Shown here piece after piece: positions 2 through 38,435 of a DNA stretch of 64,000 nt. Numbering within the stretch: position 1 is the stretch's first letter; every line of letters begins with the position of its first letter. The notes below the pieces were generated by a model that worked only from the letters and a program-made list of their open reading frames with translations, did not search any database and was not told where the DNA came from. Position numbers and translations under genes: made by a program. The DNA lies in NCBI GenBank assembly GCA_000004985.1, contig GG738845.1; one strand, written 5' to 3'. The DNA comes from Naegleria gruberi. Taxonomy: Eukaryota.

Positions 2-1231
2 TCACTGCAAACCAACAATGAAAATAATCAAGAGGTTGAAAAGAAAATATCAAAATTGATAGTCAAGTCTGTAGCAATTAGTGGAACAATTAATATGGTA
101 CTTGTTCTGGCACTCACATTCACTCTCTTTGATGTTATCACACAGGGATGGGCTATATTCGGTTGCTACCTGATTGGATTCTTGAATGGTGGAGTTTTAA
201 TTCAATTCTTATTCAGATATTATACTTTCCACAGATATCGTCCAGTTCAATACCTGGCTCTCAATTCTACAAGTTGGTATCACTATGTTTCAAGTGGATT
301 TTCTCATTCAGTTCTATCCCTCATTATTCCAATACTTTCCATTATTGTCAATATCATTCTTTGTAGTGCTCTTTCTACTTTCATGACAGGTGGTAGAGCA
401 TTTGGATCATTATTTGGGTTGACAATTTCTGGTATTGGCATGTCTGCAAATATAATTTTCTTCCTAGTACTGGATACTATTGTTCCAAATATGAATATTA
501 GACACTTGGATCAGAAAGAAACCAAATTGAATCCAACTCTTCACACTTACTTTTTAACAAATGGTGGTGTGAATAGAGGTTGTCTTTTAAGTATTACTCT
601 ATTTTTCTGTTTGAGTGGTTTGCAATTTTTGATGGTCAAGAGTGGCTTGGGTGTTGTAAACATGATAGATCTTTCTACCTTGATTGGCTTGATTGTTGGA
701 TTGGTACTGCCATTTATTATTGTTGGACTATTGTGGAGCACAATTAATTATTGCTCCATGCAAATGATTAATGAATGTAAAGGTCAATTGAGAGAAATTG
801 ATGGCCTGTTAGAAGGTAGACTAAATAGTAAACCTAATTATGAGAATATGAACCGATTACAGGGTGTGAAATCTATCAGAGGCGTCATTATGATTACTAG
901 TATCATTTTTTTAGCACCAACTTTGATAGGGTTAATTGGAAGACAAAAAATGTTGCTTGGATTTTTAGTGAGCTTTTCATTGGTTGGCTATTTTCTTTCA
1001 TTTATAATGTTAAACTTGGGCTTTTCTTGGAATTCTGTGAGAAGAATTGTGGAGCTAAAATATACTGAGCAGTCTCTTCATATGGATATCACAAGACATA
1101 ATACTGTCATTGCGGACACTGTTGGAATTTCATTAAGAGACTCTCTTGCTCCTTCCCTTTTATCTAGTGTTAGAGTTGTTACTCTAATTTGTCTAGTGAT
1201 AGCCCCAACATTGAAATTTCTATATCCATAA
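2..1231 (+). CDS. 5'-truncated multi-pass membrane protein; divergent H+-translocating pyrophosphatase (V-PPase) family, C-terminal half
   Basis: The frame is open from nt 2 with no in-frame ATG, and the ORF-track M at 56 is TTG, so the gene starts upstream of the window. It stops at TAA 1229-1231. At least 8 hydrophobic helices are visible. Three segments parallel remembered V-PPase motifs: IGLIVGLVLPF...GLLEGRLNSKPNY against IGLIVGAMLPY...GLMEGTAKPDY; LGFSWNSVRR against GGAWDNAKK; and HNTVIADTVGISLRDSLAPSL against [22 protein letters not shown]. Several conserved Asp/Lys positions are substituted. Confidence 0.5.
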   Translation, partial: SLQTNNENNQEVEKKISKLIVKSVAISGTINMVLVLALTFTLFDVITQGWAIFGCYLIGFLNGGVLIQFLFRYYTFHRYRPVQYLALNSTSWYHYVSSGFSHSVLSLIIPILSIIVNIILCSALSTFMTGGRAFGSLFGLTISGIGMSANIIFFLVLDTIVPNMNIRHLDQKETKLNPTLHTYFLTNGGVNRGCLLSITLFFCLSGLQFLMVKSGLGVVNMIDLSTLIGLIVGLVLPFIIVGLLWSTINYCSMQMINECKGQLREIDGLLEGRLNSKPNYENMNRLQGVKSIRGVIMITSIIFLAPTLIGLIGRQKMLLGFLVSFSLVGYFLSFIMLNLGFSWNSVRRIVELKYTEQSLHMDITRHNTVIADTVGISLRDSLAPSLLSSVRVVTLICLVIAPTLKFLYP

Positions 1232-25895: not shown

Positions 25896-26759
25896 ATGGC
25901 TCTAAATAATAACCATACCAGTGGTGTGCCTGAATGGGTTGGCAATGTCGACTTGAATAATATGGGATTAGATCAACAGTTCTATTACTTGATTAGATCT
26001 AATTTCTCTGAACTTGAAATTACCACAACAGTTTCAATCTTTTATATTTTCTTTTTATATACAATTCTAAGTTTACCATGGTATTTTATTAAAGTGTTTA
26101 AACCATCCTTCCTATACAAGTATAAACTTCAACAAAAAGAAGAAGAAAAACAAACAGATTGGGGTTGCATTTTACAATTGGTTATTAACCATTTACTCAT
26201 TCTTCCAATGTTATATATGGGTTATCCAGTTCTCAAGTGGGTCGGAGTTAGTTATGATTTGGCTCTTCCATCTTGGTGGGATATGTTGGCACGTTCAATG
26301 ATTTTCCTTGTAGTTGAAGATGCTTGGTTTTATTGGGTCCATCGTTTTATGCACACTGATTTTGGTTACAATTATATTCACAAAATACATCACGAATATC
26401 AAACACCAATAGGATATTGTTCATCTTATGCCAGTTGTGTTGAATTTATAATTTTAGGTATTGGATCATTCATTGGACCATTCCTCTTTGGCTGTCCACA
26501 TATTATGTCATGGTGGGTTTGGATGACTGTTCGTCAAATTGAAGCTATTGATTGTCACACTGGTTTCCATTTCCCTTGGAGTTTGTGTAATTTCCTTCCT
26601 TTCTATTGTGGACCTATTCACCACGACCATCATCACAAAACTTATAATGGAAACTATGCTAGTACTTTCACATGGTGGGATTGGATGTGCGGAACTGATA
26701 AGGGCTATCGTCTCTGGTTGGAAAAGCAAAAGAAGAAACAAGAAAAGAAGGTTGAATAA
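25896..26759 (+). CDS. C-4 methylsterol oxidase-like (ERG25/SC4MOL family, fatty acid hydroxylase superfamily)
   Basis: Three histidine boxes occur in the correct spacing: HRFMH, HKIHHEY and HDHHH. Several TM helices are present. The ORF is 287 aa. Confidence 0.75.
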   Translation: MALNNNHTSGVPEWVGNVDLNNMGLDQQFYYLIRSNFSELEITTTVSIFYIFFLYTILSLPWYFIKVFKPSFLYKYKLQQKEEEKQTDWGCILQLVINHLLILPMLYMGYPVLKWVGVSYDLALPSWWDMLARSMIFLVVEDAWFYWVHRFMHTDFGYNYIHKIHHEYQTPIGYCSSYASCVEFIILGIGSFIGPFLFGCPHIMSWWVWMTVRQIEAIDCHTGFHFPWSLCNFLPFYCGPIHHDHHHKTYNGNYASTFTWWDWMCGTDKGYRLWLEKQKKKQEKKVE

Positions 26760-26947: not shown

Positions 26948-27706
26948 TTAAAATTCAAGATGTTCGAATGAGGTGACTGCTTCAAAAGTATGATCTTCTG
27001 GTAATTTCATAGTACCTGGTCTAACAGAGAGTACTGAATCAATACCAGCTTCTCTTGCAGCAATTGCTTCTCCGATATTATCAGTCAAGAAGAGGATATC
27101 ACTATTTGGGATTCCAGTTCTTTCCAAAATTTTAACATAACTTGATTTTTCCAATTTGTTTCCAATATTTGATGTATCGAAATGATCAACAAAGTATGGT
27201 AATAAATTTCCATGAGTTGAATATTGGAATAATAATTTTTGAGCTTGTACACTTCCACTTGAATAAATGTAAATATTCTTTCCTTGCTTTTTGATTCTTT
27301 CAAAAAAGTCAAAAGCATCATCATAAACTTCTCCCAAAATATTACCACTTTCATAGCCACTTCTCCACATGTGACCTTGTAATTGTTTCAAAGCAGTCAT
27401 TTTTCTATCCTTGTCCATATTATAAACAACATTATCAATAACAGATTGTTGTGAATCAATGTTAATTTGTGGAGCATCCTTAAAATCCGATTGGCTATTA
27501 GCATCTTGTTCTGCTTGTTCCTTGAGTGAGAGGACATCCTTTTTGGTTTCTTCGCTTTCCCATGTTTCTTCAATATGAGTTTTCAATGACTTTCTAATGT
27601 ATGGAAATAAATTTTCAGCAACAAAAACAATTGGAGTTGTTGTTCCTTCAATATCAAACATGAAGGTCTTGTATTTGGAGACGGAAATTCTTTTAACAGC
27701 AGACAT
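26948..27706 (-). CDS. ENOPH1: enolase-phosphatase E1 (HAD superfamily, methionine salvage)
   Basis: The N-terminal HAD motif I is FMFDIEGTTTPIVFV, matching the E1 signature DIEGTTTPI. A C-terminal HAD motif FLTDNIGEAIAAREAGI follows. The ORF is 252 aa from an AAAAAAAATG start. Confidence 0.8.
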   Translation of the reverse strand: MSAVKRISVSKYKTFMFDIEGTTTPIVFVAENLFPYIRKSLKTHIEETWESEETKKDVLSLKEQAEQDANSQSDFKDAPQINIDSQQSVIDNVVYNMDKDRKMTALKQLQGHMWRSGYESGNILGEVYDDAFDFFERIKKQGKNIYIYSSGSVQAQKLLFQYSTHGNLLPYFVDHFDTSNIGNKLEKSSYVKILERTGIPNSDILFLTDNIGEAIAAREAGIDSVLSVRPGTMKLPEDHTFEAVTSFEHLEF

Positions 27707-28553: not shown

Positions 28554-29477
28554 ATGGACTTGTTAAGAGTTTTGGAAATTATTCCATTGCCATCGGCAGC
28601 CACCTGTGAAAGTATACCTTCACTTGTTCAATATATCCATGATGCTGTTTTGGCCACTAATCAAATGGATTTAATATCACAATTTGTTGTCTTGTGGTTT
28701 GCTGTGACCATTGCTGCCACAGTTGGATACTTTGCTGCCACTTCAATTTCCTATATGATTTTCTTTGGTATCTTTAGAGATTATTTCCATCCACCTCATG
28801 AACCACAACCATTCAAGGGACAAGAATGGTTAGAAGCCAAAATGAGTATGATTGCTATTCCATGGTTATCCTTCTTGACCATTCCATTCTTTATTGGTGA
28901 ATTGAAAGGTCATTCTAAACTCTATTGGCAAGCTGAAAATGATCCATTGTGGTACTATGTTGTTGTAGTGAGTGCCTTTATCTTGTTTACTGATATGTGT
29001 ATTTATTGGATCCATCGTTGGGAACATACCTTCCCATTGCTTTACAAGTATATCCACAAACCACATCACAAATGGTTGGTTGTTACTCCATTTGCTGCAT
29101 TTGCTTTCCATCCTTTGGATGGTTGGGCTCAAGCTTTACCATATCACATCTTTGTCTATTTGATTCCTATGAATACCAAATTATACATTTCACTCTTTGT
29201 TGTTGTTCAATTGTGGTCAATTAACATTCATGATGGTGTTGATGCTGTCGGAAGTAGACTTGGATCCTCTGCTAGTCAATATGTCAATGGTTCTCTTCAT
29301 CACTTTATTCATCACACTAGATTTGATTATAACTATGGTCAATACTTTACCATTTGGGATAGAATTATGGGATCTCACTATGATCCAAAACCAGATTTTG
29401 ATACTGGTGATTTTAATTTACCAAAACAAAATTACAATGAAGGAATGCATCCTGCCGATAAGAAGAAATCTAAATAA
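28554..29477 (+). CDS. C-5 sterol desaturase (ERG3/SC5D family)
   Basis: The segment WIHRWEHTFPLLYKYIHKPHHKW...FAFHPLDGW...NIHDG...HHFIHHTRFDYNYGQYFTIWDRIMGS matches the ERG3 histidine-box and FHP.DG / YNYGQ..T.WDR motifs. The ORF is 307 aa. Confidence 0.75.
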   Translation: MDLLRVLEIIPLPSAATCESIPSLVQYIHDAVLATNQMDLISQFVVLWFAVTIAATVGYFAATSISYMIFFGIFRDYFHPPHEPQPFKGQEWLEAKMSMIAIPWLSFLTIPFFIGELKGHSKLYWQAENDPLWYYVVVVSAFILFTDMCIYWIHRWEHTFPLLYKYIHKPHHKWLVVTPFAAFAFHPLDGWAQALPYHIFVYLIPMNTKLYISLFVVVQLWSINIHDGVDAVGSRLGSSASQYVNGSLHHFIHHTRFDYNYGQYFTIWDRIMGSHYDPKPDFDTGDFNLPKQNYNEGMHPADKKKSK

Positions 29478-29700: not shown

Positions 29701-30017
29701 TCATGATAATTGAATAATTCGAGATTTTTCAGTTTTATTTGAAATATCTTCAATGTTAAGTTTTAAATGAAAACTATTAAAATTGGAGAAATCAAAAAAA
29801 ACAAGAAAACGCTCTCAAATATGATAACCACCAAGATTTCAAATAATCCACCAATAATGATTACTCTTTCGTCTCTGTGATAACATGAGTAAATAAACTG
29901 GTTATTAGGAAGAATACAACCATGAACTAAGAGGAAAAAGAAAGATACTCAACATTATCTGTATATAATGGCAAATAAGGAAGGACATCTAAACATCTGG
30001 ATATTGTAAAGATCTAA

Positions 30018-30186
30018 TTGTTGATTCTTTGTTTTTTCCAGTTGATATTGATTAACAAAGGTCTTCCATTTATTGGAGATGAGGGTTTGCTTCGAAAGTA
30101 TTTTAATAAGAAACTTGCCTTGATTAGAATTGTTGTAGAGAATGTAAACAGCCATATTAAGAAATGGAAGCCCATCTGGATCTAGT
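30018..30186 (+). mobile_element. remnant of a Harbinger/PIF-type (DDE_Tnp_4) transposase C-terminus (pseudogene fragment)
   Basis: A 55-codon open stretch encodes ..GLPFIGDEGLLRKYFNKKLALIRIVVENVNSHIKKWKPIWI*. It matches the remembered transposase tail (LLGDSGYPL...FN..LS.ARRVVENAFGRLKGRWR). No upstream DDE-containing exon is recoverable within the 900-bp intergenic gap. Confidence 0.4.
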
Positions 30187-30291
30187 TCATCGGATAGAAT
30201 TTGTAAAATTCGTGAAATGAGCCAGATATTCAATAAATTTATGTTTTATTGTGTTTTGTGGATTTGTTTCAGAATAATCACAATTCTAGAA

Positions 30292-30332
30292 AATTCACAA
30301 CAAACAGAAAATTTACACAAAACACGTGTTTT
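30292..30332. repeat. right copy of the ~40-nt motif containing the palindrome AAAACACGTGTTTT
   Basis: The right copy is aattcacaacaaacagaaaatttacacaaaacacgtgtttt. It lies about 100 nt upstream of ATG 30428. Confidence 0.6.
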
Positions 30333-30427
30333 ATTAAAAAATTGAAAAAATCAGTGCAAACAGATAACTCACCAAAAAGGTGAATCACCCCAAGTAGTAA
30401 AATCAATTGACTTGGTAAATTGAAAAA

Positions 30428-31705
30428 ATGCCAAAACATAGAAAGCATAAAACTCTTCCCAATCAGCAAGAATTAATTAATTTACAAGATTCGAATGTTG
30501 TTGAATTAAACCTTGAAAGCTCCAATCAAATATTCCCAGATGATATTTGTTGTGAAATATTTTCCTATTTATCGAATAATACATTCCATCTCCTTCTTTC
30601 TTGTTCACTTGTTTGTAGACAATGGTTTCGAATAATTAAAGAATATTCACATCTTTATTTAATATTTAAAAAACAATTTCCCCGAATGCTCCTGATGAAT
30701 AGTTTGTATTTGAATAGAGTTACTAGTTTGGAAATTGGAGAGAATGTAATGATTGAAAGTGATTTATTAAAAACAATGGTCAACTGGCAAGTTTGCAAAA
30801 AGATGAATAATTTGAAGAGATTTCACATTTATAAAAATGATATTGGTGAAGAAGGAGTGAAAGAAATATTAGAAATGTCTCAATTGACTGATGTTTCCAT
30901 TATTTCAAATGGAATCACACGTGACGAAATGAAATTAATGGGAAAATTGAAACATTTAACAAGAATTGACCTGAGTTGGAATCCTATTGGTGATGAAGGA
31001 TTGAAATCTCTTTCAGAAATGAAAGAATTATTAACAAGTTTACATGTTTCACATTGTAAAATTGGTGATTTGGGATGTGAAATAATTGGTCAAATGTATC
31101 AATTGACTGAATTGGATATTAGTAGCAATAGTGGTTGGAATTCCAAGGTTTCTTCAATAGGAGTAAAATCAATTAGTCAACTGAAAAAATTAACAAAATT
31201 GAACATTAGTAGAAATAATATTAATGGAGAAGGTATCAAGTCAATTAGTGAAATGAAACAATTGATTTCACTAAATGTTTTCAATTGTAGCATTTCAAAA
31301 GAGTTTACAAAATTTCTAGTGTCAGAAAAATTGACAGAACTTGATATTGGAAATAATATCTACTTGGATGATTCATTTTTAGAAATGAAACAATTGAGAA
31401 TACTTAAAATGGAAGGTCTTCTTGTTAAGATTCCAGAAAAGATTCGTCAATTGAAAGAATTAACAGAGCTAGATGTGTCATCATGTAGATCTAATGATAG
31501 AGATTTTGTGTATGATATAAAAGAATTAAGAAATTTGAAAAAGCTGTTCCTTAGACGGAATGCATCAATTCAAGATAAAGGAGTGATTTTGCTGAGCCAA
31601 CATTTGGAACACTTGACCGAGTTGGATATTCGTGATTGTGGAATTAGTTACGAAGTAGAAAAATCACTCAAACACAAGAAAAATTTGACTAAACTTGTGT
31701 TGTGA
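30428..31705 (+). CDS. F-box + RNI-type LRR protein, paralog of the 19847..21232 gene
   Basis: The F-box-like FPDDICCEIFSYLSNNTFHLLLSCSLVCRQWFRII is followed by repeated units of about 24 aa of the form IGDEGLKSLSEMKELxSLxVSxCxI. Confidence 0.7.
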   Translation: MPKHRKHKTLPNQQELINLQDSNVVELNLESSNQIFPDDICCEIFSYLSNNTFHLLLSCSLVCRQWFRIIKEYSHLYLIFKKQFPRMLLMNSLYLNRVTSLEIGENVMIESDLLKTMVNWQVCKKMNNLKRFHIYKNDIGEEGVKEILEMSQLTDVSIISNGITRDEMKLMGKLKHLTRIDLSWNPIGDEGLKSLSEMKELLTSLHVSHCKIGDLGCEIIGQMYQLTELDISSNSGWNSKVSSIGVKSISQLKKLTKLNISRNNINGEGIKSISEMKQLISLNVFNCSISKEFTKFLVSEKLTELDIGNNIYLDDSFLEMKQLRILKMEGLLVKIPEKIRQLKELTELDVSSCRSNDRDFVYDIKELRNLKKLFLRRNASIQDKGVILLSQHLEHLTELDIRDCGISYEVEKSLKHKKNLTKLVL

Positions 31706-31875
31706 GTAATAGGATTGAATTAAATAACTATTATATTGGTATTAATTTGAAATAATTCTGAGTAAATTGATATAGAAATCAAATGTTGATTATCAGGTTT
31801 ACAAATAAAATTGAAAATTCATGATACCTTTATTTCAACCTAATGAAGAATATGTTATCATCATCATTACAGGAT

Positions 31876-32682
31876 TTAGAGGTCAGGATTACCTAAAAAT
31901 TCTCTACGCTTTTGTTGAGCACACTTTGTGAACTCCTTCACCAGGTGTGAACAATTAAGAGTTCCGTATGGTGTATTGTTAGCCTTGAAACAATTAATCA
32001 AATCAGATCTTTGTGTTGGACATCCATAGGATTGAATAGTACGATGATGTGGAATTAATTTATCGAGTTTTGAAATTTCTTCTTCCAAATGTTCAACTCT
32101 GGCATCTTGTAAATGTTCCAAAAGTCTATTTTGTTGATTCTATATATTATCATCAAGAATTATTATGTTCCGCATAATGTTTGTTATTAGAGTATTCCGC
32201 ATAATATTATACATATAATTTACACATTTGATTGTAGATGATGATTATCATTAGCCAAGTTTTATCATCAATATTATTAATAGTAAATAATATAATAGCA
32301 AATAAAAACCAGATGATGATGAATATTAATAATAATAATTATTGCTTACCTTCAATTGTTCATATTTAAATTTAGCCAAATTAAAATCTTCAATAGAAAC
32401 AGTCTTCTTTTCAACAGCAGCAACAGGCTGTGACTCTACTGGTGCAGATTCTTCAACACTTCTATTAATTGGTGATGAGACTTGTGTGGTTATTGATGAA
32501 TTCATTGTTGGTTCAGGTTGTTGTGGAAGTTGTTGTTGTTCAGGTTGTTCTGGTTGTTGTTGTTGGTGGAGTACAGCTGGCTCTGGCTCAACACTACTTG
32601 ATTGTTGTGATGCTTGTGTGAGTCCGTTGTTTGGGAAGAAATTTTTGACAAAGTTGGTGGTGAGAGAAACACTGTGGTGCAT
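31876..32682 (-). CDS. twin Cx9C (CHCH) domain protein, MIC19/CHCHD3-like; complement(join(31876..32139,32350..32682))
   Basis: Exon 1 runs from ATG 32682 and encodes a Q/P/E-rich N-terminal half ending ..KYEQLK at a GTAAGC donor. The 210-nt AT-rich intron ends ATATAG. Exon 2 encodes a helical segment and two Cx9C motifs (CPTQRSDLINC and CSHLVKEFTKC). Confidence 0.6.
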
Positions 32683-33320
32683 TTTTTAGTGTTGATTGAA
32701 TTTGGAAAATAAAAGTGGTGAGCATTGGTGAGAATCGAAACACCAACCTTCTCTATGGAACATTTCGATAATCTTTTTCAAGAATTTAATTCGTGTTTAT
32801 TGGTCAGTATATTCAAAAAGGATAAGGTGTTTAAAACTTGGTTTTGGATGTCTGAAAAAATAGCTTTGTTGATTCAGTCCAATTCAGAAAAGATTTATTA
32901 AGGGAATGTTGAATTTGATATTAGTTACTTCTCTAAGAATGGATGAGAGTAGAAATTCATTATTTCAATACTTGATATTCAAAACACTCAAATTATTTGT
33001 AAAGCTTATGAGCTGTATTATGTTCCATTGTAATTTTTCTGGTTGACCAGCAAAACTCATCCACATAGACAAATTTAACCTCGTGCAAACTCTACCTAGT
33101 ACACACATTTTCACCATTTCATAATAACTGTATTAGATAATGAAACTTTACATTGTAAAAATATTAGAATTATAAAAAGAGAAAATAAATGGTTCAAAAT
33201 TCACTTTTGAGGGGCATGCTAAAAACTACCCACCAATTTGCTGTGACTCACAACGCAACCCATTTCCGAGCCTTTTCCATTGGACTTTTTAATTGCTTCA
33301 ATAAAACTTTCGAAAACAAA

Positions 33321-34480
33321 ATGCTTGCTGCTAAGAAATCAGGTGCTGCTACTGCTGCCGACAATAAGATTAAAATTCTCTTCGTCACTGGTAACGAAAA
33401 TAAGAAGAAGGAAGTTCAACAAATTATGGGTGAACAATTCCAAGTTGATTCTTTGGCTATTGATTGTAGGTTTTTTAAATCATCATCATGGAAATTTTAA
33501 TTTAACAATAATTATTATCATAACCATGATTACAATGTTTTAATGAAATATTATTTCACTTATCGAAATTATCAAAATTATCAAAATTATATTTTAACGT
33601 TTTTTGGAAATTGTATTATTGAATTTAAATAGTACCAGAACTTCAAGGAGAAATTGATGAAATTTCAAAGGAAAAATGTAGAATTGCCATTCAAAACGTT
33701 TTGACTGATCCAAAGATTGCCTATAAATATGGTTCCGAACACGTCATTGTTGTTGAAGACACTTCATTGTGCTTTAATGCTTTGAATGGAATGCCAGGTC
33801 CTTATATTAAATGGTTCTTGGAAAAGTGTGGACATGAGGGTTTGAACAAGATGTTGGTTGGTTTTGAAGATAAGACTGCTTCTGCTGTTTGCACTCTTGC
33901 TTATTTCCATCCTAAATGGTTGCAAGAACAATTAAAGACTATGAAGGGACACGAACATATGCATGACCATGGTGAATCTGGTTGTTGTGACCACGATCAC
34001 GAACATGATCATCATGAACACAAGCATGAACATAAACATGAACATGGTGAATCTTGTTGTGATCATGACCATCATCATGAACACAAGCACGAACACAAGC
34101 ATGAACATGGTGAAGAAAAGTGTTGTAAGGGATTGAGCCCAGAGGAATGTTGTAAAAATAAGGAAGGAGCTGAAAAGTGTTGTGAAAATGATGAATGTTG
34201 TAAGGAAGGTGAAGAAGAATGGGAAGATGATTGTTGTGATGATGGATGTGGATGTTGTGGAGAAGTTGAATTGGATTTGAATCCAAAAGTTATCAGAGGT
34301 GAAACCACTGGTGACATTGTTCTTCCAAGATCTGCTGAAGGTCCAGCTTTCGGATGGGATCCAATCTTCCAACCAACTGGTTTCACACAAACTTTTGCTG
34401 AAATGACTAAGGAACAAAAGAATACTATCAGTCACAGATATAAGGCTTTCCAAGCTTTGCAAGCTGCCTTGTTAGAGTAA
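33321..34480 (+). CDS. ITPA: inosine triphosphate pyrophosphatase (Ham1/ITPA) with ~105-aa His/Cys-rich insertion; join(33321..33465,33633..34480)
   Basis: Exon 1 (from a CAAAATG start) encodes [22 protein letters not shown]...SLAID. A GTAGGT donor at 33466 and a 167-nt intron ending AAATAG lead into exon 2. Exon 2 continues in phase with [17 protein letters not shown]...[26 protein letters not shown] and ...[33 protein letters not shown], all canonical ITPase motifs. The ORF-track ATG at 33189 lies upstream in frame and is probably 5' UTR or an optional presequence. Confidence 0.8.
33971..34108 (+). repeat. in-frame tandem duplication (75 + 63 nt) encoding GES(G)CCDHDH(E/H)H(D)[12 protein letters not shown] units inside the ITPase insertion
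   Basis: Unit 1 (33971..34045) and unit 2 (34046..34108) are about 85 percent identical at nucleotide level. Each begins ggtgaatct(g)gttgttgtga and ends aagcatgaacat. Confidence 0.75.
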
Positions 34481-34602
34481 ATTTTTGTCTTTTCAATTGT
34501 TGAGTATTTAAGTGTAAGAGATGTGTTTGTCTCGAAAAATTTGTTCTGCCTCAATTCAAAAAACAAGAAAATTCGTGTCTTATTAAATAACCAAAAAAAA
34601 AT

Positions 34603-36429
34603 ATGAGACAACACTCCCTCGTACATCTTTTATTCGGTAGCAGAAATGATGACACACTGAATGCTGCTGATGATGATCAAATGAGCACCTTTGCTGCCAC
34701 TAATGAGCACGATAAAAATCAAGAGAATATTCTTGTTACAATGATGGTTCTAGCTATTGCTTCCTTTTCAATATTTGCTTCGGAGGAGAGTTTCTTTTTT
34801 CAATCATCAATGATTTATAGATTGATTTTGTTCTTTTTGATGAGTGCAATTTCTATTGGATTACTTCAATTAATTATCAAGTTTGTAAATACTAATGATT
34901 ATTGTAGATATGTGATATATTCCCTCCTCATCATTGTGATTGCACAATTTCCATTTGAAAAGTATTCGAGTTTGAATTTGCATGATGAAAAATTGTGGAA
35001 ACATGATGTAGAGTATTCGACTAAGGTTTTACTACCAACTATATATACGAATGTTACTTTTTCCAAGATACAGCACGAGTATAAACTTGAAGAAATTGCC
35101 AAATGGTACAAAATACCAACAAATGATACCTATCTTGTGAATGAAGATGATTTATTTTACAATTCGATACCAAATGATATGAATTATTGTAATTATAAGG
35201 CTAGTATTGATAGTCAATGGTTTGAATATTTAAAGGCTGCAAAGGACATGACAATTATTCCTCTCAATAGAATGAAAATCTTGGAGAAATTCAATTCTAC
35301 TATGAGTTTCAAACTCTACAAATCAGTCTCCAAAATTCTCAACTCTATCAAATCTGTACATGATTTGACATTAACTAAAACTAGATTGGAGCAGGGTATT
35401 TCAAATGAATGTAAAGGAGATTATTTCAAATTGATTTGGTGGGATTTTAATAAGGAGTCAATTATGAATTGTTCATTTATAATCAAGTTTAACACAACCG
35501 AAAGAACCAAGCACGAAACTATTTTAGATTTTGAACGTCGACAAGTGTTGGAGCCAACAGAGCATACATATATTGAGAATTTGTACAAACCCGAATATAA
35601 ATGGGCAGTTGCAAGGAGGACAATACAAGAAACTGAAATATTTGTAAGCATTCAGTCAAAGAGTGTACATGAGGATTTTTCTGAATTATTCATTCCTTAC
35701 TCTAACGCAACAACCTATTCTTCATCAAGTAAATGTAGAGAGGAAAAACATACAGTTTATTTGGGAGATTTCATAATTAAGAATGAAACGAAATACGAGT
35801 GGGTTCACTCTTATGATCCAATATTATTTTATACTGGAGCAATTATGGCTGCTTTTGCCTTTCTATCAATGTGGATATGTAAAATGTTACTAATTATCTT
35901 GATTGGATTTATTATCTATTATTTAATATTTAATCATCAACAAGCAAATGAAGAAGAACACTTAGAGGAGGAAATTATCACGAACATTTTGGAATCCACA
36001 AATCCTGAAACACTTCAACAACCTGTATCATCTTTATCAAATGACATGACATTTTTCAACGTAAATCTTAATGAAGTGAAAATGGAAGAACAGATTGGGG
36101 AAGAAATACTATTGGGACCAGTTATATCATTCGAGGAAATGAGAAATTCCAGAAAATCCAGACCAAACCAATCGAATGATAGTATTAGTCAGGATTCTAA
36201 TGAGGAGGATGAAGAGTTAGGTTCAACTCTTGAACTAGCAGTCAACCCTTCTCCAGCGACATTACAGGAAGGAATTGCAGAACAAACCACTCTATTAAGA
36301 GTGACCAGAAGAAAGAATCCAAGTGTAAAGCGTTCCTTTGAACGAGCCATGGAACCAATTTTAGATATTATGGTAGATGATGATATTATAGAATCATCAC
36401 CAAATCTAAAGAAAATCAAGGAAGAATAA
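34603..36429 (+). CDS. hypothetical multi-TM membrane protein
   Basis: The 608-aa ORF starts at ATG in an AAAAAAAAATATG context. It has N-terminal TM helices, a large N-glycosylation-site-rich loop, a C-terminal TM segment and an acidic tail. I recognise no family motif. Confidence 0.5.
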   Translation: MRQHSLVHLLFGSRNDDTLNAADDDQMSTFAATNEHDKNQENILVTMMVLAIASFSIFASEESFFFQSSMIYRLILFFLMSAISIGLLQLIIKFVNTNDYCRYVIYSLLIIVIAQFPFEKYSSLNLHDEKLWKHDVEYSTKVLLPTIYTNVTFSKIQHEYKLEEIAKWYKIPTNDTYLVNEDDLFYNSIPNDMNYCNYKASIDSQWFEYLKAAKDMTIIPLNRMKILEKFNSTMSFKLYKSVSKILNSIKSVHDLTLTKTRLEQGISNECKGDYFKLIWWDFNKESIMNCSFIIKFNTTERTKHETILDFERRQVLEPTEHTYIENLYKPEYKWAVARRTIQETEIFVSIQSKSVHEDFSELFIPYSNATTYSSSSKCREEKHTVYLGDFIIKNETKYEWVHSYDPILFYTGAIMAAFAFLSMWICKMLLIILIGFIIYYLIFNHQQANEEEHLEEEIITNILESTNPETLQQPVSSLSNDMTFFNVNLNEVKMEEQIGEEILLGPVISFEEMRNSRKSRPNQSNDSISQDSNEEDEELGSTLELAVNPSPATLQEGIAEQTTLLRVTRRKNPSVKRSFERAMEPILDIMVDDDIIESSPNLKKIKEE

Positions 36430-36513
36430 ATTGTCAAATAGATGCCCAATTCTCTCAGTAACAAGTCCAATTTGAGATTTATTGTTTGAAATCAATAGAT
36501 TCAATATTTACAA

Positions 36514-38220
36514 TTAAAATGATTCCCCTGTTCCCATTTGTTGATTTAGTAATTCTTCATCAAGGTAAGAGGTTTGTCCATTATCAAAATCTGTACTCTC
36601 TATTGTAGTTGCTTGGGTATCGTATTGTGAGTATCTATTATTATTTGTGTGGTCAGTAATTGGTTGAGATGGAAGATATTGATCTGAGAATAGTGATAGC
36701 ACATTTTCTGATTTAAAATTCGCAATAACGTTAGCGATTGGATCTTTCAAACGTATTTCATAATCAATTGTTGCCATTATTGTCTTGTTGGCCTTTCCAA
36801 TTATATTGGCAGTTCCCTTAATAACATTGCTTTTGCCATCCTTTATAAATCCGGCTAAAGGAATCTCAACTTGCCCAACAACTTCGCAATTATCTATTGA
36901 GTGAGCAATTGTTAATTGCACCAATATATAACCATTAGCAATATAGTACATAAATAGTGTGTTGTTTTCAAATTCGAATAACTTTTCAAACGCAAGCTCA
37001 TTAGTTATACCGTATGTCATTCCTGATAATTGTGTTTCATGCTTGAAGAAATCAACTGACAAGAAGAATGGAAGATTGCTCCACTCCTTGGAAAAGTGAG
37101 TCATATTTGGCCTAGTGTTGAATAACTTGAATTGACATTGATTTTCAGAATGGGTTTGAACAAAGTTTACCTTAATTTCTCTAGGTTGAGGTAAATCTTT
37201 GTGTAAAATTGTAACCATTCTATCTCCTTCATCTTCTGGAATATATTTTGGCTCTGGCTTTGTTTGGGGCTTTTCCTTTGGTGGTTCTTGTTTAGGAAGT
37301 ACCAACTCTTCATATATAGGTTTTTCGATAATTGGTGGTTTTCTTAGAGTTGGTTTTTCAATAATGATAACTTCAGGTTTGTAATTACTTTTTACAACAT
37401 CGACAAAAGGTTCAATTTCCTTATAGATTTGAACAGGTGGTTTCCAATCCATAATTGGAGGTGGAGGTTTCACTTCTCGTTTCACTTCTGGTTCAATATT
37501 TACTTGAACAGATTGAGCATAACTAGCAGGTTTCTTTTCTATGAGTGTTTGAACTTCTGCCGATATTGTTAATATGGAGTTAGTTTGGGTTGGAACTGAT
37601 TTCTTTTCCTTTTTCTCCATCATTGTCTCCAGCTGAGTTTCTTGATTTTTATACTTGGCAACAATTTTTGTATACTTTACGTGTTGCTCTGAAAATTTAT
37701 CATTCCATTGTTTGATTTCTTGTTTTAATTGTTCAATCAAAGTTTCATATTTTTTGTTTTGTTTCTTTTCCTTTAACTTTTCTGTATCCAACAATGTATC
37801 TTGAAGGTTTTTGTTGACCTTCCTTAGTGATTCAATTTCTTGTCTTAGTTTCTTATTCTTTTCCTCGCTGTCTGATAATTTTGTAATTTCAATTTGTTGA
37901 AGTTGAATTTTGTTTTGGAGCTCTGATGAGCGTTCTCTTTCGTCCTTTAAATCTCGTTCCAACTCTCCTAAACGATTAATTAATTCCTTATGATTATCCA
38001 AAATAAATTTGAAATTATTTTCCAACTGATCGTATTTAGATTGAAGTTGTTTAATCTTGGTATTTTTACTCCGAATTTCATGTTGAAGAGATAATAATTC
38101 CATCTCATGTTGTTGACGCAATTTAATATCATCAGCTGAGGGCTGAATAGGATTTCCTATTTGTTGTTGTTGTTGTTGCTCCCGACTAACAATCCGTGCC
38201 TGTTGTCGTTGTTGAAGCAT
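36514..38220 (-). CDS. coiled-coil protein with Pro-rich linker and globular C-terminal domain (possibly C2-like)
   Basis: The 568-aa ORF is Q-rich at its N-terminus, with about 180 aa of heptad-rich sequence and KP/EP repeats. The C-terminal 200 aa are beta-rich. Confidence 0.5.
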   Translation of the reverse strand: MLQQRQQARIVSREQQQQQQIGNPIQPSADDIKLRQQHEMELLSLQHEIRSKNTKIKQLQSKYDQLENNFKFILDNHKELINRLGELERDLKDERERSSELQNKIQLQQIEITKLSDSEEKNKKLRQEIESLRKVNKNLQDTLLDTEKLKEKKQNKKYETLIEQLKQEIKQWNDKFSEQHVKYTKIVAKYKNQETQLETMMEKKEKKSVPTQTNSILTISAEVQTLIEKKPASYAQSVQVNIEPEVKREVKPPPPIMDWKPPVQIYKEIEPFVDVVKSNYKPEVIIIEKPTLRKPPIIEKPIYEELVLPKQEPPKEKPQTKPEPKYIPEDEGDRMVTILHKDLPQPREIKVNFVQTHSENQCQFKLFNTRPNMTHFSKEWSNLPFFLSVDFFKHETQLSGMTYGITNELAFEKLFEFENNTLFMYYIANGYILVQLTIAHSIDNCEVVGQVEIPLAGFIKDGKSNVIKGTANIIGKANKTIMATIDYEIRLKDPIANVIANFKSENVLSLFSDQYLPSQPITDHTNNNRYSQYDTQATTIESTDFDNGQTSYLDEELLNQQMGTGESF

Positions 38221-38435
38221 TTTTTTTGTAAATTGTTTTGGCGGGAAATTTCGTTACATTGATGATTTCCTATGAGGATTGAAACAACTCATGATGATTT
38301 TAAATTGAGATGAGTTGATGAAATTTTCTTTAATAAGTTATTGATTTGTTTAATTTGCTCTTGTATGCTGGTGGTTAGAAGAGTTCCAATATATGACATT
38401 ATTCAATAGTTTATTTAAACTTTCTAATAAAAATG

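Follow-up and report, generated by a model that had tools for sequence, protein, structure and literature searches.

The ITPase/Ham1 gene of Naegleria gruberi occupies positions 33321..34480, on the + strand, of a 64,000-nucleotide stretch of contig GG738845.1 (NCBI GenBank assembly GCA_000004985.1); this stretch is referred to as the window. The gene has two exons and a spliced product of 330 aa. In this product a turn of the catalytic fold is expanded into a 127-residue segment rich in histidine and cysteine, and the comparison of three Naegleria species with one another and with other ITPases shows, at the level of sequence, that the insertion is translated coding sequence, specific to the genus and kept by purifying selection. 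As to its function, we favor one based on metal binding, most probably that this abundant cytosolic enzyme buffers or sequesters metal; by analogy with known His/Cys-rich extensions, we hold this with modest confidence.

The insertion and its parts

The insertion and its parts, in window coordinates, are listed below; helices and confidence values (predicted local distance difference test, pLDDT) are from AlphaFold2 models, and the tandem repeat was delimited with Tandem Repeats Finder (TRF).

33905..34285, + strand: whole insertion at the tip of a beta-hairpin; residues 140-266, 127 aa, with 24 His, 17 Cys, 38 Asp plus Glu and 13 Lys
33911..33946, + strand: predicted helix leading out of the core strand; residues 142-153, helical in both models and nearly invariant in three species
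33950..34108, + strand: His-rich part, evolving fast; runs of (H-x)n together with GES(G)CC-DH units; TRF repeat at 33953..34108; pLDDT <50
33971..34045, + strand: duplication unit 1; 25 aa; a single such unit in the other two species
34046..34108, + strand: duplication unit 2; 21 aa; 88% identical to unit 1, the in-frame gaps being of 3 and 9 nt
34109..34261, + strand: conserved Cys array; six vicinal Cys-Cys pairs in an acidic and Lys-containing context; pLDDT ~50-56

Residues 140-266 are assigned to the turn that joins two long central strands because only 9 residues of human ITPA lie between the aligned blocks; the human counterpart of the whole insertion is thus a hairpin turn of ~9 residues (human 123-131). 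An initial annotation of this stretch, made from the DNA letters alone, had placed a His/Cys-rich segment in a surface loop, and the alignment with human ITPA (2car), which puts that segment at the hairpin turn, agrees with it. The same annotation gave the length of the tract as about 105 aa. The region that it delimited, 33946..34262, is indeed the compositional extreme of the insertion, but the full insertion has 127 aa and the extra length relative to other ITPases is ~119 aa.

Histidine makes up 19% and cysteine 13% of the 127-aa segment. The two together account for 41 of its 127 residues, as compared to 4.2% in 15 long open reading frames (ORFs) of the window (binomial P = 2.5e-25), and no equally His/Cys-rich stretch of 40 aa was found elsewhere in the six-frame translation of the 64 kb. 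The cysteines are arranged almost exclusively as neighbors: 16 of the 17 are in vicinal CC pairs, a number matched by none of 100000 shuffles of the segment, and in the orthologs described below all of them are so paired (14/14 and 16/16). The N. gruberi segment has a single CxC motif (CGC), the other Cys motifs being CC doublets.

The His-rich part contains a repeat with a period of 75 nt in 2.1 copies (TRF, 33953..34108). With two units that are 88% identical and align with in-frame gaps only, the recent in-frame tandem duplication proposed initially for 33971..34045 and 34046..34108 is well founded. It is specific to the N. gruberi lineage, because N. lovaniensis and N. fowleri hold one unit only.

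Two antisense ORFs run through the insertion on the - strand, one of 176 aa at 33932..34462 and one of 115 aa at 33939..34286. Both most probably arise from the repetitive, GAA/CAT/TGT-rich coding strand, and we do not take them for genes.

Identity of the enzyme and gene structure

Profile, invariant residues and predicted fold all identify the N. gruberi protein as a genuine ITPase whose catalytic fold is normal. The Pfam profile PF01725 (Ham1p_like) is matched with E=6.6e-46 and 157 bits, the cut-off being 22.5, in two stretches split by the insertion, and human ITPA (PDB 2car) is matched with E=2.4e-49 over residues 17-139 and 267-325. At each of the 32 invariant columns of an alignment of 82 ITPases the invariant residue is present in N. 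gruberi (32/32). Residues of the substrate and catalytic sites that are invariant in the family are kept, namely N25, K28, E51, K63, D91-T92, FGWD at 288-291, K311-N312 and S315-H316-R317. Both halves of the ITPase fold had been called intact beforehand, and the split PF01725 match, the invariant columns and a predicted core like that of human ITPA all support that view. The activity expected of the family, Mg2+-dependent hydrolysis of ITP, dITP or XTP to the monophosphate and pyrophosphate, is also what we predict for this protein. The DNA had been taken for that of a dictyostelid, which is incorrect; the best database matches are to Naegleria gruberi (Heterolobosea).

The gene is divided as follows.

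33321..33465, + strand: exon 1; residues 1-48 plus 1 nt, coding for the FVTGNxNK phosphate-binding N-terminus
33466..33632, + strand: true spliceosomal intron; GTAGGT...AAATAG, 167 nt, 17% GC, phase 1
33633..34480, + strand: exon 2; TAA stop at 34478..34480
33633..33904, + strand: N-terminal ITPase core, exon 2 part; residues 49-139, ending in a core strand; pLDDT ~85-97
34262..34477, + strand: return to the core; residues 259-330, with EVELDLNP, a strand, FGWD, KNxISHR and the C-terminal helices

Removal of 33466..33632 rebuilds the ITPase motif IDLPELQGE. The orthologous genes have an intron at the matching position, of 143 nt in N. lovaniensis and of 162 nt in N. fowleri. All three Naegleria species share the start context GAAAACAAAATG. 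The 330-aa length of the initial gene model is what exons 33321..33465 and 33633..34480 give when joined.

A second Naegleria-specific insert, of 12 residues relative to human ITPA, lies at ~33698..33736 (residues 71-83) between helix 2 and the VVEDT strand. The three Naegleria species all retain it, and in Acrasis that place is occupied by a different insert.

Translation of the insertion and the public gene model

The public model of this gene, RefSeq/JGI XP_002683257 (EFC50513, UniProt D2UYP5), is a 'predicted protein' of 211 aa, 98% identical to ours over the aligned part. It contains the following additional intron.

33861..34217, + strand: false 'intron 2' of XP_002683257; 357 nt, GT..AG, in frame, 39% GC

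Its junction reads ...NKMLV|EWEDDCC..., and most of the insertion is lost. We must then ask whether all or most of the segment is intronic and is spliced from the mature mRNA. The GT..AG ends and the length divisible by three of the piece dropped from the public model are in keeping with this, and the proteomic identification discussed below, having been made with the 211-aa model, is unable to contradict it. However, the dropped piece includes a core strand conserved in all 82 of the aligned ITPases (82/82), its GC content is far from the 17% of the true intron, and the donor of the supposed intron was not found in the sequence of N. lovaniensis or N. fowleri. In those two species the segment is retained by three independent annotations. 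An intron would also not be expected to show purifying selection at the level of codons and indels that are exclusively in frame. We therefore regard splicing of the segment as extremely improbable. The 211-aa model is wrong because it removes the conserved core strand along with most of the loop; we judge from sequence that XP_002683257 is mis-modelled, should be 330 aa, and is probably an artefact of homology-guided prediction.

Other properties of the insertion are those of an exon. Its GC content is 39%, that of the flanking exons 37-41%; only the gene's own frame is free of stops across it; the preference for the Lys codon AAG is common to core and insertion; and in the N. lovaniensis and N. 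fowleri genes the reading frame is unbroken through it. Exon-like GC, codon-level selection and the homologous in-frame segment in two further species uphold the earlier statement that the insertion is in frame and not an unrecognised intron.

Orthologs and selection

The N. lovaniensis ortholog, XP_044546365 (321 aa), shares 70% identity with the query, which is covered to 100%. The N. fowleri ortholog, XP_044558154 (323 aa), belongs to the cluster of the N. lovaniensis protein, and there are two more N. fowleri-like entries. In all these Naegleria proteins the insertion is present, homologous, in frame and stop-free, and the public labels of the N. lovaniensis and N. fowleri orthologs are hypothetical or uncharacterized proteins only. 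The tract is accordingly not confined to the present gene, since XP_044546365 and XP_044558154, which carry it too, were already public. The ortholog comparison that was proposed at the outset thus finds the tract in three Naegleria species, with no functional annotation attached, and finds Acrasis and Percolomonas to be without it.

All CC pairs of the array 34109..34261 are conserved across the three Naegleria species, and all indels between species are multiples of 3 nt. The proportions of synonymous (pS) and nonsynonymous (pN) differences were obtained as Nei-Gojobori counts, with the Cys-pair array taken as residues 210-266.

N. gruberi vs N. lovaniensis, catalytic core: pS 0.58, pN 0.115
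N. gruberi vs N. lovaniensis, whole insertion: pS 0.74, pN 0.175
N. gruberi vs N. lovaniensis, Cys-pair array: pS 0.69, pN 0.12
N. lovaniensis vs N. fowleri, whole insertion: pS 0.53, pN 0.044
N. lovaniensis vs N. fowleri, Cys-pair array: pS 0.53, pN 0.025

For the Cys array, pN ranges over 0.12-0.14 against a pS of ~0.7, on par with the core. The His-rich part has a pN of 0.24-0.28; it evolves faster than the Cys array and changes mainly through indels. Given low pN at near-saturated synonymous sites, purifying selection on the Cys array and on the leading helix is about as strong as that on the enzyme core. This pattern shows a loop that appears, from its sequence, to have grown by repeat slippage and later to have been partly frozen by selection.

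Predicted structure

AlphaFold2 was run on the N. lovaniensis ortholog, with the 82-sequence alignment, and on the N. gruberi exon-2 product. In the N. lovaniensis model the core has pLDDT >90, a helix is formed at PQWLQEQLKKMKG (residues 140-152), most of residues 164-241 have pLDDT <50, and the chain re-enters the sheet at EVEL. The top Foldseek matches of this model are human ITPA, with 2i5d at a TM score of 0.85 (target-normalised) and a root-mean-square deviation of 2.0 A. The N. gruberi exon-2 model is alike, with the helix at residues 142-153 of the full-length protein and pLDDT <50 in the His part; its Cys array has pLDDT ~50-56 and short helices. The insertion is predicted to be an internal loop between two core beta-strands and to be largely disordered.

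Distribution

The distance from the PGPYIKWF motif to FGWD is 55-61 aa in 119 other ITPases (among the best 120 ITPase matches plus cluster members). The N. lovaniensis and N. fowleri proteins have 168 aa at this place, and on the spliced N. gruberi sequence we count 177 aa. Two heterolobosean relatives have ITPases without the insertion, Acrasis kona (196 aa) and Percolomonas (202 aa). A scan with the exon-2 protein found it at the hairpin in none of 80 metagenomic ITPase loci (0/80); longer matches in three of these loci (L059, L065, L078) are due to introns at other positions, not to hairpin insertions. When metagenomes were scanned with the alignment of the insertion, 600 pattern matches were obtained, of which none was confirmed.

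An exhaustive HMMER search of 1.84 billion representatives with a profile of the insertion gave 0 matches, and the Naegleria ITPases were not returned either; perhaps they are represented in that set by an ITPase without the loop. The result is weak evidence, at the level of sequence, that the module occurs nowhere else. Word-indexed searches with the insertion profile and with a profile of the Cys array also returned nothing, but they missed the known N. lovaniensis ortholog, which hmmsearch, run locally with these profiles at equal database size, recovers at 1e-54 (insertion) and 3.6e-28 (Cys array). These two negatives are uninformative because the positive control fails.

One metagenomic contig, the GC-rich L059 with an ordinary ITPase, has a His-rich coding stretch at 817..972, ~2 kb upstream, that gives weak tblastn matches to the His part. 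This stretch is outside the ITPase gene of the contig.

In our literature searches no publication turned up that deals with a Naegleria ITPase or with these accessions, nor any description of such an architecture, so that its designation as previously undescribed holds for the literature searched.

Genomic neighborhood

The ITPase genes of N. lovaniensis (L001 1..13109) and N. fowleri (L082 1..7134) share a gene order: an ABC transporter gene, an NHL-repeat gene, the ITPase gene and, on the opposite strand, an RNA-dependent RNA polymerase gene. In N. gruberi the ITPase gene is flanked by an F-box/LRR gene and an ORF of 608 aa (compared region 30000..38300), and neither synteny nor detectable similarity of the flanks to the N. 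lovaniensis and N. fowleri loci was found. The 608-aa ORF is intron-less and lies directly downstream, at 34603..36429; it has no Pfam match and is without a counterpart in the other two loci. From its sequence, it looks like a protein with hydrophobic, perhaps membrane-spanning, stretches. Further upstream, at 25896..26759 and 28554..29477, are two paralogous fatty-acid hydroxylase (PF04116) genes on the + strand, and between them lies a HAD-hydrolase gene on the - strand (26948..27706).

Upstream of the ITPase gene, the three species have no common motif beyond the start context. A TGACTCA site at ~33243 was dropped from consideration, as it is present in N. gruberi only.

Abundance of the protein

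A proteomic study of N. gruberi and copper has been published (PMC9035749), and its supplementary sheet 'NG cu BCS raw' contains the entry XP_002683257.1. The protein was identified by 8 peptides covering 62% of the short model, with an intensity of 6.8e9 and 39 MS/MS spectra (PMC9035749). Its log2 values of label-free quantification (LFQ) were 30.46, 30.40 and 29.79 with the chelator BCS and 29.89, 29.86 and 30.08 with copper, a difference that is not significant (PMC9035749). Intensity, spectra and flat LFQ in that study indicate that the enzyme is abundant and that its level was not copper-responsive there. On the loop itself these data are silent because the search database lacked the loop sequence.

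Possible function of the loop

The tip of the hairpin between two long central beta-strands has been expanded into a translated, acidic loop of 127 residues that is predicted to be largely disordered. The first part of the loop is the conserved helix, the second a rapidly evolving segment of (His-x)n and GES-CC-DH units whose length changes by in-frame repeat slippage, and the third the conserved array of vicinal Cys-Cys pairs. We propose that the ~40 His and Cys ligands of each monomer (~80 per dimer, if the protein dimerizes like human ITPA) may bind several metal ions, candidates being borderline or thiophilic metals of the Zn2+, Ni2+, Cu+ and Cd2+ class. An abundant cytosolic ITPase could in this manner also serve to buffer or sequester metal, a role comparable to that of the His/Cys tails of HspA, SlyD and Hpn. 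Binding at multiple sites is inferred because of the composition of the loop and the analogy with Hpn, HspA and SlyD, and so is the metal sensing or storage suggested by the initial annotation. A secondary possibility is that the loop might shield or modulate the ITPase activity, since ITPase needs Mg2+ and is most active with reducing agents (PMC5075207, PMC8833965); any coupling of the hairpin tip to catalysis is speculation.

Several observations weigh against a metal-binding function. No homology of the loop to a characterised metal-binding protein or domain was detectable in Pfam or in a PDB sequence search, the only PDB match to the insertion being a His-tag. The His-rich loop of ZIP transporters (PF02535) reached 16.6 bits, below the cut-off of 35.1, and only the variable (HX)n loop of that profile was matched. 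The His-rich part evolves as fast as a neutral low-complexity tract might, and none of the neighboring genes of the window is related to metal handling. The unchanged LFQ under chelation and copper argues against copper-regulated expression, not against binding.

An alternative is that the loop is a regulatory or redox module. Through its vicinal dithiols and His runs it would respond to the redox state, to a particular metal or metalloid, or to a partner protein, and would then switch the activity, oligomerisation or localisation of the enzyme. The strictly conserved CC pairs and leading helix suggest a specific rather than a bulk role, as may the slightly higher AlphaFold2 confidence of the Cys array (pLDDT ~50-56, short helices) relative to the His part. 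The reductant preference and Mg2+ requirement of ITPase (PMC5075207, PMC8833965) would suit such a switch, and the example of SlyD, in which Ni2+ binding perturbs the active site of the peptidyl-prolyl isomerase (PPIase), indicates that tails of this kind can be regulatory (PMC3292732). Communication between the hairpin tip and the active site is nevertheless speculative, neither a partner nor a motif was identified, and many redundant ligands in a repeat whose number varies by species are more typical of capacity than of a switch. A regulatory role is, in our opinion, unlikely. It is also conceivable that the insertion is a neutral low-complexity expansion that arose by replication slippage, is tolerated in a permissive surface hairpin and has no role of its own. 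Low-complexity inserts are frequent in protist proteins, and a predicted disordered loop with a recent tandem duplication in N. gruberi, many indels in the His part across species and no homologous module found elsewhere (1.84 billion representatives) would fit that description. The conservation of the Cys array and helix does not: pN is 0.12 against a pS of 0.69 in the array, which is core-like, and 0.025 against 0.53 between N. lovaniensis and N. fowleri. The pairing of Cys has moreover been kept in three species (16/17, 14/14 and 16/16), a pattern that a neutral tract would lose. These points leave neutrality quite improbable.

Metal binding by the loop is our preferred reading. A bolder form of it, which we find doubtful, is that the ITPase has been co-opted as a cytosolic metal store or chaperone, a eukaryotic counterpart of HspA and SlyD, with metal occupancy of the loop gating ITPase activity or oligomerisation and so linking metal status (Zn, Cu and Ni, or thiophilic toxicants like Cd, As and Hg) to sanitation of the purine pool.

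If the loop binds metal, Naegleria would provide a case of a eukaryotic housekeeping enzyme moonlighting as a metal buffer, and the loop would be an unrecognised part of Naegleria metal homeostasis, a subject studied because of the pathogen N. fowleri, which has the same loop. There are also practical consequences. The error in XP_002683257 spreads to proteomic databases and to UniProt (D2UYP5), and the native, abundant and His-rich ITPase is expected to co-purify from Naegleria extracts on Ni-NTA columns.

Comparison with known systems

Within the ITPA/Ham1/RdgB family (PF01725; PDB 2car, 2i5d, 2j4e), the Naegleria protein shares the catalytic fold and all family-invariant residues, and it differs by the expansion of a ~9-residue turn to 127 residues and by the 12-residue insert after helix 2. 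For the loop, the closest parallels are extensions of the HspA, SlyD and Hpn type, which form a functional class and not a homologous family.

In HspA, the GroES homologue of H. pylori, a His/Cys-rich extension stores or sequesters nickel (PMC3856676). As in Naegleria, a flexible His/Cys segment with CC pairs beside His-x-His runs has been added to a housekeeping protein. The extension of HspA, however, is a short C-terminal tail of 27 aa in a bacterium dependent on Ni enzymes, whereas in Naegleria a eukaryotic enzyme holds an internal loop of 127 aa, without sequence homology to HspA and with metal binding proposed from its composition.

SlyD, a PPIase of the FKBP type, has a His/Cys tail that binds 2-3 Ni2+ or Zn2+ with micromolar Kd and influences the enzyme domain (PMC3292732). 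The likeness includes His-x-His runs, Asp and Glu residues, GCC and GCGC motifs, and the attachment of a flexible segment to a folded enzyme. SlyD differs in that its segment is a terminal tail serving the maturation of [NiFe]-hydrogenase, and no homology to the Naegleria loop was detected. Naegleria is known for an [FeFe]-hydrogenase.

Hpn, with His runs and EEGCC repeats, binds several Ni2+ at multiple sites in a non-cooperative manner (PMC5312948). The EEGCC-type units of Hpn and Hpn-2, the nickel storage proteins of Helicobacter, resemble GESGCC, GESCC and EEKCC of the Naegleria loop, but Hpn is a free-standing protein of 60 aa with 47% His, and the Naegleria loop has 19% His and lies inside an enzyme.

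Metallothioneins are likewise Cys-rich, disordered without metal and able to bind many metal ions per chain. They are small and free-standing, with CxC and CxxC clusters and few His; the Naegleria segment has CC doublets and abundant His and Glu. Membership in this group is ruled out by the CC doublets, the His content and the position within a 330-aa enzyme.

The Naegleria segment thus has the His-x-His runs, vicinal Cys pairs and flexibility (pLDDT below 50-56) of the HspA, SlyD and Hpn class, and departs from it in being internal rather than a terminal tail or a free-standing protein. What is new, two ortholog sequences being already public, is a His/Cys appendage of the metal-binding type in a new host family, the ITPases, at a new position, a hairpin loop, and in a eukaryote.

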